Assembly: GCA_029942125.1 (NCBI GenBank) | Contig: JAPYUB010000002.1 | Coordinates: 1-43,410, forward strand | DNA from: Candidatus Thalassarchaeaceae archaeon | GTDB lineage: Archaea; Thermoplasmatota; Poseidoniia; Poseidoniales; Thalassarchaeaceae | Direction: 5' to 3' | DNA length: 43,410 bases | Notes under the pieces: generated by a model | The model's database searches: none | Told to the model about the DNA's origin: nothing | What the model saw: the letters and a program-made list of their open reading frames with translations, nothing else | Position numbers and translations under genes: made by a program | Shown: positions 37,092 to 38,096 of the stretch, piece after piece | Numbering within the stretch: position 1 is the stretch's first letter | Layout: each line of letters opens with the position of its first letter

Positions 37092-38096
37092 TCACCTGAC
37101 TTCAAAAGCATCCAGTAATGCGCGACATCTCTCTTTTGTTGATTCGTCAGTCACTCGAAGAACCACGCCTGCAGAGGGTTGCCCATAGAGAACAACTGTG
37201 CCAAGTGGTGCAAGAAGATGAATCATGATTGGAGCAAGATCTTCTTCACCCTCAACTTCTAACAAGACGGGGCCGCCATCATCTGAAAAAGCGAAATCAA
37301 GCGCTAAATCCGTACATTCAAGCAAGTCGGGGGTCAATTGACCGGCGGGATTTTCACATGTAAGGTGGCCCACAAAAGAACTCATATCTATTTCACCATC
37401 CCAAGCAGTTCGTTTGGTGAGTCCATCGACAAAACCAACATCTGGTACCCAGCCCGTTTCCAGCAATGCATTCACTGTGACATCCCCAACTGCAATCAAA
37501 CAGGGAGAAAATGCAGGTATGGCCTCGACAGCGGCTCGTATGGCCACCTCGGGAGTATCTTCTGGCCCTGGAAACAGTGTCCCCATGGGTTCTTTCAATT
37601 CTGAATCGAGAGATGTTGGAAGATGAACGGCTCGTTCAAGATCAGATTCACGTATCCACAAATTTCCTTCCCGATTTATGCTTCCTTGACGAATTCGCGA
37701 TGAGGAAATGGCTTTACCATCTTCAGCAAGAACATGAGGAACTTCGACAAATTCCAATGGTGTCAAATCTTCTTCATTTCTCATTTGATTGATTTTTTCA
37801 CAATTCTCTCGTGTTTCAGGGGTGCAAACAATGTGAGTCGCATCACCTCTTGTTGGAGCCGGCCCCCATGAATCTTCCAGAGAATGTGTAGATAGAGAAC
37901 GATCACCGGCCCAATCTGAAATATCGTTCTGACGATCAGATTGAGGTTTAATCCGAGGATCTTTCTCTACAGCAATGGCATCCGATGTCACCCATACCTC
38001 GACGGAATCGCAACTCAATGCGGCCTCAAGTAGAGCTTGATGGCCAGCATGAAAGCAATCGAAAGTCCCGCCGACAAGGCAAAGTGTTGCGCTCAT
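37092..38096 (-). CDS. Fusion protein: archaeal phosphopantetheine adenylyltransferase (N-terminal) plus DUF359-type GTP-dependent dephospho-CoA kinase (C-terminal)
   Basis: The N-terminal cytidylyltransferase motif is LVGGTFDCFHAGHQALL. The C-terminal half reads IAVGDVTVNALLETGWVPDVGFVDGLTKR...LLEVEGEEDLAPIMIHLLAPLGTVVLYGQPSAGVVLRV, which matches what I recall of the DUF359 / T. kodakarensis TK1697 family. Confidence 0.8.
   Translation of the reverse strand: MSATLCLVGGTFDCFHAGHQALLEAALSCDSVEVWVTSDAIAVEKDPRIKPQSDRQNDISDWAGDRSLSTHSLEDSWGPAPTRGDATHIVCTPETRENCEKINQMRNEEDLTPLEFVEVPHVLAEDGKAISSSRIRQGSINREGNLWIRESDLERAVHLPTSLDSELKEPMGTLFPGPEDTPEVAIRAAVEAIPAFSPCLIAVGDVTVNALLETGWVPDVGFVDGLTKRTAWDGEIDMSSFVGHLTCENPAGQLTPDLLECTDLALDFAFSDDGGPVLLEVEGEEDLAPIMIHLLAPLGTVVLYGQPSAGVVLRVTDESTKERCRALLDAFEVR

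Follow-up and report, generated by a model that had tools for sequence, protein, structure and literature searches.

The locus described here lies within a window of 43,410 nucleotides, the whole stretch of Candidatus Thalassarchaeaceae DNA that was analyzed, and centers on a minus-strand gene whose predicted product joins a phosphopantetheine adenylyltransferase (PPAT) to a DUF359 domain of the GTP-dependent dephospho-CoA kinase (DPCK) family. The list of open reading frames contains a single uninterrupted frame at 37092..38099 (minus strand) that encodes 335 aa when read from a TTG codon, and the residue numbers of motifs given below count from this TTG. The gene, its parts, and its immediate surroundings comprise the following features:

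37092..38096, minus strand: coding sequence of the predicted fused PPAT-DPCK (a CoA synthase of the archaeal type), which starts at ATG 38096, runs for 334 aa, and ends with TGA at 37094-37092
38099, minus strand: alternative in-frame start TTG, one codon upstream of ATG 38096
37656..38081, minus strand: PPAT domain, aa 7-148 (NF001985, PF01467, and PDB 3DO8 by sequence and fold)
38040..38072, minus strand: GGTFDCFHAGH, the nucleotidyltransferase (T/H)xGH motif, aa 10-20, read from the translation
37689..37709, minus strand: ISSSRIR, the second nucleotidyltransferase motif (ISxxxxR), aa 131-137, read from the translation
37626..37655, minus strand: short connector, aa 149-158, between the PPAT and DPCK alignments (the 3DO8 alignment reaches aa 146, and aa 160 pairs with residue 7 of TK1697)
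37095..37625, minus strand: DUF359 / arCOG04076 GTP-dependent dephospho-CoA kinase domain, aa 159-335 (PF04019, NF041125, PDB 8JVC)
37482..37484, minus strand: Asp206, equivalent to TK1697 Asp48 (VGDV), invariant, from the 8JVC alignment
37425..37427, minus strand: Asp225, equivalent to TK1697 Asp67 (VDGLTKR), invariant, from the 8JVC alignment
37239..37241, minus strand: Asp287, equivalent to TK1697 Asp125 (GEEDLA), invariant, from the 8JVC alignment
38122..38127, minus strand: TTGAAA, which resembles a TATA box and lies 31 nt ahead of the ATG, conserved at that place in aligned spacers
36074..37087, minus strand: downstream family-2 glycosyltransferase (GT2), likely ATG at 37087, 4 nt past the fusion stop, with AGGTGA overlapping that stop

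Most relatives recovered by homologue search and alignment are 334 aa in length and begin with MS(A/G)-TLCLVGGTFD, and the coding sequence is therefore placed at 37092-38096, from the ATG, which is the interval named in the original prediction made from this DNA. The central claim of that prediction, that a PPAT and a DUF359-type DPCK reside on one polypeptide, is likewise upheld: PF01467 and PF04019 both score above their Pfam cut-offs within the one reading frame, and all of the motifs that had been quoted in its favor (GGTFDCFHAGH, VGDV, VDGLTKR, VEGEEDLA, VLYGQP, and GVV) are found in the translation. It had been cautioned that a hidden frameshift or stop might conceal two separate genes; neither is present inside the fused frame of the window. 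That a sequencing error or an annotation fault has merged two adjacent genes is so improbable as to be negligible, given that 150 independently assembled genomes and hundreds of metagenomic proteins (329-341 aa) show the same continuous frame, that the connector measures just ~10 residues and is free of stops in all frame-consistent relatives, and that no supporting point for such an artifact was found.

The scores obtained with profiles for the two halves are far beyond chance. With regard to the N-terminal half, NF001985, the NCBIfam model for archaeal PPAT, matches aa 7-148 with 123.3 bits against a cut-off of 104 (125.4 bits in a six-frame search of the genome), and PF01467 matches aa 8-138 with 29.5 bits against a cut-off of 21. 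Across an alignment of 26 diverse Poseidoniales homologues, residues G10, G11, T12, F13, D14, H17, G19, and H20 of the first nucleotidyltransferase motif are invariant, as are S132, S133, and R137 of the second. The Archaeoglobus fulgidus structure PDB 3DO8 aligns by sequence to aa 9-146 (E 1e-14), and this likeness extends to the fold: in an AlphaFold2 model computed from the alignment of 26 Poseidoniales homologues (mean pLDDT 92.9, pTM 0.88, and pLDDT 87-92 over the connector), Foldseek superimposes the N-terminal half on 3DO8 with a TM score, normalized to the target, of 0.77-0.81, while bacterial PPATs match with TM scores of about 0.6-0.66. By profile, motifs, and Rossmann-like nucleotidyltransferase fold, the N-terminal half is an archaeal PPAT (NF001985 / COG1019). 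It shares a common profile, the HxGH and ISxxxxR motifs, and a fold with the archaeal PPATs of COG1019, among them Pyrococcus abyssi PPAT, Thermococcus kodakarensis TK2128, and A. fulgidus 3DO8; those enzymes are stand-alone proteins, however, whereas the C-terminus of the PPAT described here runs directly into the kinase. The PPAT half also matches NF002250 / PRK01170, the 'bifunctional PPAT/NTP phosphatase' of other Thermoplasmata, with 92 bits over aa 7-146, but the fusion partner in that family is a different one and its whole-protein cut-off of 489 bits is not reached.

Assignment of the C-terminal half to DUF359, as had been proposed from its motifs, is confirmed by a match of 93.6 bits to PF04019 (cut-off 25, E 9e-27) that covers aa 210-333 and profile positions 3-126 of 126. 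NF041125, an equivalog model for the GTP-dependent DPCK of the Thermococcales, matches aa 159-334 with 105.9 bits, below its cut-off of 300; as this model is order-specific, the missed cut-off excludes the designation 'Thermococcales equivalog' and not membership of the DUF359 family. The motifs of the family are located at aa 204-207 (VGDV), 224-230 (VDGLTKR), 282-289 (VEGEEDLA), 303-308 (VLYGQP), and 311-313 (GVV). A characterized relative is TK1697, the stand-alone, 177-aa DPCK of T. kodakarensis (PDB 8JVC/8JVF/8JVG), to which the C-terminal 177 aa of the fused protein align over nearly the whole enzyme at about 37% identity (residues 7-172 of the 8JVC chain against aa 160-334, E 7e-25), with D48, D67, and D125 kept. 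Replacement of any one of these three aspartates by alanine in TK1697 yields an enzyme with which growth of the deletion strain is impaired, and for the D48A variant the impairment in vivo was severe (Shimosaka et al., 2019; PMC6650551). The corresponding Asp206, Asp225, and Asp287, together with the GEEDL and YGQP blocks, are invariant among the 26 aligned Poseidoniales homologues, and the C-terminal half of the AlphaFold2 model superimposes on 8JVC/8JVG with a Foldseek TM score, normalized to the target, of 0.86-0.88 (E 7e-17).

The place of the fused gene in the metabolism of this organism was considered by means of searches of the assembly (1.83 Mb, 205 contigs, completeness 86%). These returned one DUF359 match and, in a six-frame search with NF001985, one PPAT-grade match; a weak second PPAT match on contig 36 proved to be a generic cytidylyltransferase and was set aside. 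No match to the CoaE-type kinase (PF01121) was obtained in the fused protein or in the 86% complete genome. Since the assembly holds one DUF359 match, one PPAT-grade match, and no detected CoaE, no candidate besides the fused gene emerges for the two final steps of CoA synthesis, and it is accordingly the predicted housekeeping gene for these steps; at 86% completeness, some small room is left for a second DPCK or PPAT. A CoaBC gene lies on contig 16, such that two polypeptides, CoaBC and PPAT-DPCK, are predicted to supply the last four activities of the pathway.

On the basis of what was observed, namely the identity of both domains, intact catalytic motifs, the predicted fold, the single copy, and the phyletic distribution, we put at roughly 93% the probability that the product is a bifunctional CoA synthase of the archaeal type. 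By analogy with characterized family members, the N-terminal domain would adenylylate 4'-phosphopantetheine with ATP to give dephospho-CoA, and the C-terminal DUF359 domain would yield CoA by phosphorylating dephospho-CoA at its 3'-OH. GTP is the phosphate donor of the characterized Thermococcus enzyme, and the same nucleotide specificity may be expected here. Both activities and the use of GTP are extrapolated, as the available enzymology is limited to enzymes of Thermococcus and Pyrococcus that are about 37-40% identical, and any channeling between the active sites is to be read in the same conditional manner. One could suppose instead that the DUF359 half is not an active DPCK, serving as a regulatory domain or as a kinase for another substrate while a different enzyme completes CoA. 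The available biochemistry is that of unfused enzymes, the NF041125 cut-off for the Thermococcales is missed, and a genome that is 86% complete leaves room for such an enzyme, yet this supposition is highly improbable in view of the invariance of the three functionally tested aspartates and of the GEEDL and YGQP blocks, the match of the predicted fold to 8JVC, and the failure to detect a CoaE-type kinase in the genome. Further, no archaeal DPCK other than DUF359 is known, and a DPCK role would lead one to expect fusion to the enzyme of the preceding step.

Support for a bifunctional CoA synthase is also to be found in the literature, in which this fusion has already played a part. Specifically, Shimosaka et al. 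(2019, mBio; PMC6650551) reported the fusion of PPAT with arCOG04076 in "group II/III euryarchaeota" and used it to predict the archaeal DPCK; TK1697, tested because of that fusion, proved to be a GTP-dependent DPCK. Domain fusions of DUF359 formed the basis of the same argument in another study (Makarova et al., 2019; PMC6393860). Set side by side by architecture and lineage, the published PPAT-arCOG04076 fusions of uncultured marine group II/III euryarchaeota (e.g., AIF21550.1) have the same architecture, lineage, and inferred function as the gene described here and show no difference of substance from it. The gene is thus a member of the published set, from the published lineage, and the fusion was already known. 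Our literature search returned no paper that characterizes a fused enzyme or discusses DUF359 in bacteria.

The main value of the present analysis is one of annotation. Public records label such proteins merely "pantetheine-phosphate adenylyltransferase" or "cytidyltransferase-like", and metabolic reconstructions of marine group II can therefore wrongly report the last step of CoA synthesis as missing.

A parallel with COASY, the eukaryotic enzyme in which a PPAT is fused to a non-homologous DPCK, had been drawn from the sequence, and the comparison is a fair one. COASY carries out the same two reactions with the same domain order, PPAT then DPCK, and its PPAT half derives from the same nucleotidyltransferase superfamily. 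The kinase half of COASY, in contrast, is a P-loop DPCK of the CoaE type, while that of the archaeal protein has the DUF359 fold, which matches 8JVC and is related to thiamine pyrophosphokinase. PF01121, the domain by which eukaryotic-type CoA synthases are recognized, is absent from the fused protein, which is accordingly to be classed as an analogue of COASY and not as a member of that family. The parallel with a non-homologous kinase had itself been raised in the discussion of the 2019 paper (PMC6650551).

A six-frame search detected the fusion in 150 of 151 Poseidoniales genomes, in almost all of them as one full-length frame without stops, and the figures for high-quality genomes (57/58) and for genera (22/22) are in agreement. 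The named relatives, described as "Candidatus Poseidoniales", "Thalassarchaeaceae", or "Poseidoniaceae", range in identity from 96% down to about 50%, and nearly all carry both PF04019 and PF01467. Throughout the order Poseidoniales (marine group II), the fusion is a trait passed on by vertical descent. Elsewhere in the Thermoplasmatota, for which 165 other genomes were searched, the PPAT and DPCK halves match separately: in a sister lineage of the same class they are found on different contigs (G176, G309), the same is true of family f23, and many of the PPAT matches outside Poseidoniales fall in frames of about 350 aa that lack the DUF359 half. The one exception seen is G285, where a run of N lies between two otherwise contiguous halves.

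Outside the phylum, representatives at 50% identity were searched exhaustively, which yielded 179 proteins at E<=1e-30, and among the 150 of these that were listed most are full-length fusions of 320-350 aa with 30-37% identity. A scan of species-representative genomes located the fusion, apart from Poseidoniales, both in Patescibacteria (Roizman-, Levy-, Gottesman-, Chisholm-, Beckwith-, Woese-, and Kaiserbacteria, Saccharimonadales, and Paceibacterota) and in archaea of the DPANN group (Micrarchaeota and Aenigmatarchaeota). Both Pfam domains were confirmed in the CPR and DPANN fusions, including that of the closed Ca. Beckwithbacteria genome CP011210.1. These proteins have the same two domains in the same order as the Poseidoniales enzyme, 30-38% full-length identity to it, and conserved catalytic motifs, but they belong to other domains of life and other gene neighborhoods, and some possess a third, N-terminal nucleotidyltransferase domain. 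The neighborhoods of the fusions outside the phylum are bacterial in character, with genes for MreB, sortase, DivIC, and TsaD. Confinement of the fusion to Poseidoniales is therefore ruled out by G285 and by the CPR and DPANN fusions. It had been suggested at the outset that the fusion would be of little note if ubiquitous in archaea; it is not ubiquitous there, although it is universal in the order (150/151) and was already published, so that in practice the reservation applies.

The point of wider interest is an evolutionary one, namely whether one fusion or several took place across archaea and CPR bacteria. The DPCK domain of the fused protein is 38-43% identical to the unfused DPCKs of Methanosarcina, Haloarcula, and Thermococcus. 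In a tree of this domain (74 rows, 182 columns, with an open backbone), the Poseidoniales fusions form one clade with SH-aLRT support of 95, apart from the main CPR clade (91), and are joined, with weak support (80), by unfused euryarchaeal DPCKs and DPANN fusions. The simplest reading is that the fusion arose once, either inside Poseidoniales or at the base of the order. A different history, in which one ancient fusion was shared by lateral transfer among Poseidoniales, DPANN, and CPR/Patescibacteria rather than formed within Poseidoniales, draws on the abundance of full-length fused proteins at 30-38% identity in Patescibacteria, Micrarchaeota, and Aenigmatarchaeota, and on an AU test of the 182-column DPCK domain alignment in which a single clade of all 51 fused rows was not rejected (p 0.666), a result that falls short of demonstrating such a clade. 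Against it stand the position of the Poseidoniales in the free tree, weakly (80) with unfused euryarchaeal DPCKs rather than within the main CPR clade, the separate genes of sister lineages in the same class, and the finding that the DPCK domain is as similar to unfused archaeal DPCKs as to CPR fusions; the DPCK tree itself has just 182 columns and a backbone without resolution. We consider such sharing possible, though rather unlikely. If it did occur, a ready-made CoA synthase for both steps would have passed between domains of life in the distant past, with the marine group II gene at one end of that transfer.

In addition to the fused gene, the window holds a megasynthase of KS-AT-ACP-KR-DH architecture (7659-15950), a FabI-like enoyl reductase, and an Sfp-type phosphopantetheinyl transferase (PPTase). 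The original prediction had connected these genes with the fusion, proposing that a fused enzyme might raise or channel the supply of CoA for the PPTase and carrier protein of the megasynthase, 21 kb away; the two would then be functionally coupled. The three megasynthase-associated genes do sit in the window, and in many Poseidoniales genomes the two loci are found 21-25 kb apart on the same contig. Their distributions nevertheless differ: the fusion is present in 150/151 Poseidoniales genomes, while the KS-AT part of the latter was detected in 102/151. Among the genomes sampled, KS-AT was not found in genera g4 (0/10), g6 (0/12), g7 (0/7), g12 (0/8), and g13 (0/3), and a single, weak match at 32% identity was obtained in genus g9 (1/9), yet the fusion is kept in all sampled genomes of these six genera; in at least 40 genomes from five genera (g4, g6, g7, g12, and g13) it is present with no megasynthase detected. 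Moreover, unrelated housekeeping genes (orc1/cdc6, a biotin carboxylase, and a PfkB kinase) lie between the loci, the constant spacing forms part of a block of synteny around orc1/cdc6 that extends across the order, and CPR and DPANN genomes carry the fusion as well. On the strength of co-occurrence over 151 genomes and of synteny, the coupling was rejected; the link is largely refuted by distribution, and we regard it as very improbable. The analysis raises nothing new on CoA synthesis or on the neighboring megasynthase.

The genomic setting of the fusion is itself conserved. The gene orc1/cdc6 is located 1.6 kb downstream on the opposite strand, and upstream a 357-bp spacer separates the fusion from a gene for an 885-aa winged-helix protein. 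In ten genomes representing all three families the order is kept as MBL-fold hydrolase, orc1, membrane protein, (GT2), fusion, spacer, wHTH protein, and (aldolase), and the fusion gene is part of a conserved, order-wide, origin-proximal block next to orc1/cdc6. The GT2 gene, found directly downstream of the fusion in 8 of 10 related loci, is probably co-transcribed with it; functionally, GT2 is no part of the CoA enzyme. With respect to initiation, no Shine-Dalgarno-like motif was seen before the fusion gene, and TTGAAA is situated 31 nt before the ATG; from this arrangement, the gene probably has its own promoter and a leaderless mRNA. The same hexamer is found at -30 of another gene in the window (4583-6451).

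The GC-rich spacer, 38100-38456, constitutes a conserved structured RNA. In a comparison of 11 genomes, 37 of its 48 predicted pairs are marked by compensatory changes, and many of the pairs on the minus strand are G-U. Rfam gave no match at E<=1 over 36500-39000, nor in 10 related loci, and the RNA is distinct from the RNase P and SRP RNAs of the genome. A covariance model of this RNA, designated R1, finds one copy in the genome and, at each of the Poseidoniales loci tested, a single copy immediately upstream of the fusion. A role as leader or riboswitch of the fusion gene was considered and rejected: a T-rich run and the TTGAAA motif intervene between the RNA and the ATG, and R1 is found away from PPAT and DPCK elsewhere. 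Since R1 is present as a single copy in 76 of 151 Thermoplasmatota genomes, there not beside PPAT or DPCK, the spacer RNA is taken to be an independent, phylum-wide RNA gene.

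A conserved structured RNA occupies most of the spacer that precedes the PPAT-DUF359 fusion gene:

38143-38421, reverse strand: structured RNA of approximately 280 nt, inside the spacer at 38100-38456 and directly upstream of the fusion gene

Among 11 Poseidoniales genomes, compensatory changes were observed at 37 of the 48 predicted pairs, and several k-turn-like motifs (GATGA/TGAA) are found within the molecule. No Rfam match was obtained, either over positions 36500-39000 of the window (E<=1) or at 10 related loci. The RNA is distinct from the RNase P and SRP RNAs of this genome, which are located on contigs 53 and 114, respectively. 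Searches with a covariance model of the RNA (R1) revealed a single copy in this genome and one copy in 76 of 151 Thermoplasmatota genomes, with matches outside the Poseidoniales sited apart from CoA genes. The RNA looks like an undescribed housekeeping RNA of the whole phylum. Additionally, three fusion homologues of 355-396 aa (P0058, P0062 and P0064) carry N-terminal extensions (e.g., GWVRTASYGNEMVRYALGHTF) that resemble the translated 3' end of the window's RNA gene (ORF 38026-38211); their extended starts are probably mis-called and run into the RNA gene.

Both the fusion gene and the RNA belong to an origin-proximal block (33047-42849) that is kept in all three Poseidoniales families, as represented by the fusion loci of ten genomes (L030-L039). 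The block consists, in order, of genes encoding an MBL-fold hydrolase, Orc1/Cdc6, a 208-aa membrane protein, a GT2 and the fusion, then the RNA, an 885-aa wHTH protein and a class I aldolase. Of these genes, the one for the GT2 is lacking in the two genomes of genus g6 among the ten (G023, G027). The KS-AT part of the megasynthase (7659-15950 in the window) found no match in genera g4, g6, g7, g12 and g13 of the window's own family, the genomes of these five genera being small (1.2-1.7 Mb), and was detected in 73 of 74 genomes of family f3. This distribution suggests that the megasynthase was lost during genome streamlining.

Published descriptions found during this analysis treat DUF359 as exclusively archaeal. 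The archaeal-type fusion is frequent among CPR/Patescibacteria bacteria and DPANN archaea (loci L046-L118); representative loci, together with one locus from another Thermoplasmatota family, are the following:

L108:3004-3990, fusion in Ca. Beckwithbacteria (CP011210.1)
L069, L082 and L111, fusions in DPANN archaea
L067:3001-4488 and L084:3001-4500, three-domain form in Patescibacteria; the form is also seen in proteins P0225 and P0245 (510-511 aa)
L010 (G285:C276:530-1568), PPAT and DUF359 halves on one strand in another Thermoplasmatota family

In the 5.5-Mb genome bearing L010, the two halves are contiguous, with a run of N as the sole interruption, and the gene neighbourhood is unlike that of the Poseidoniales fusion; L010 is probably a fused gene beyond this order. 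In the three-domain form, PPAT-DUF359 is preceded by an additional N-terminal nucleotidyltransferase domain with an NMN-adenylyltransferase-like GRFQPFHxGH motif, and NAD and CoA cofactor steps could be united in a single protein.

Certain taxon labels of fusion-bearing contigs appear doubtful. Specifically, contig L105 is assigned to a bacterium (Ca. Kaiserbacteria) and contig L101 to an archaeon (Ca. Norongarragalinales archaeon), yet their fusion genes are near-identical and the translations upstream of these genes are identical; the conflict probably results from mis-binning or mislabelling. The labels 'uncultured Gammaproteobacteria', borne by many MAGs with the fusion, and 'Weeksellaceae', borne by one, look wrong as well.
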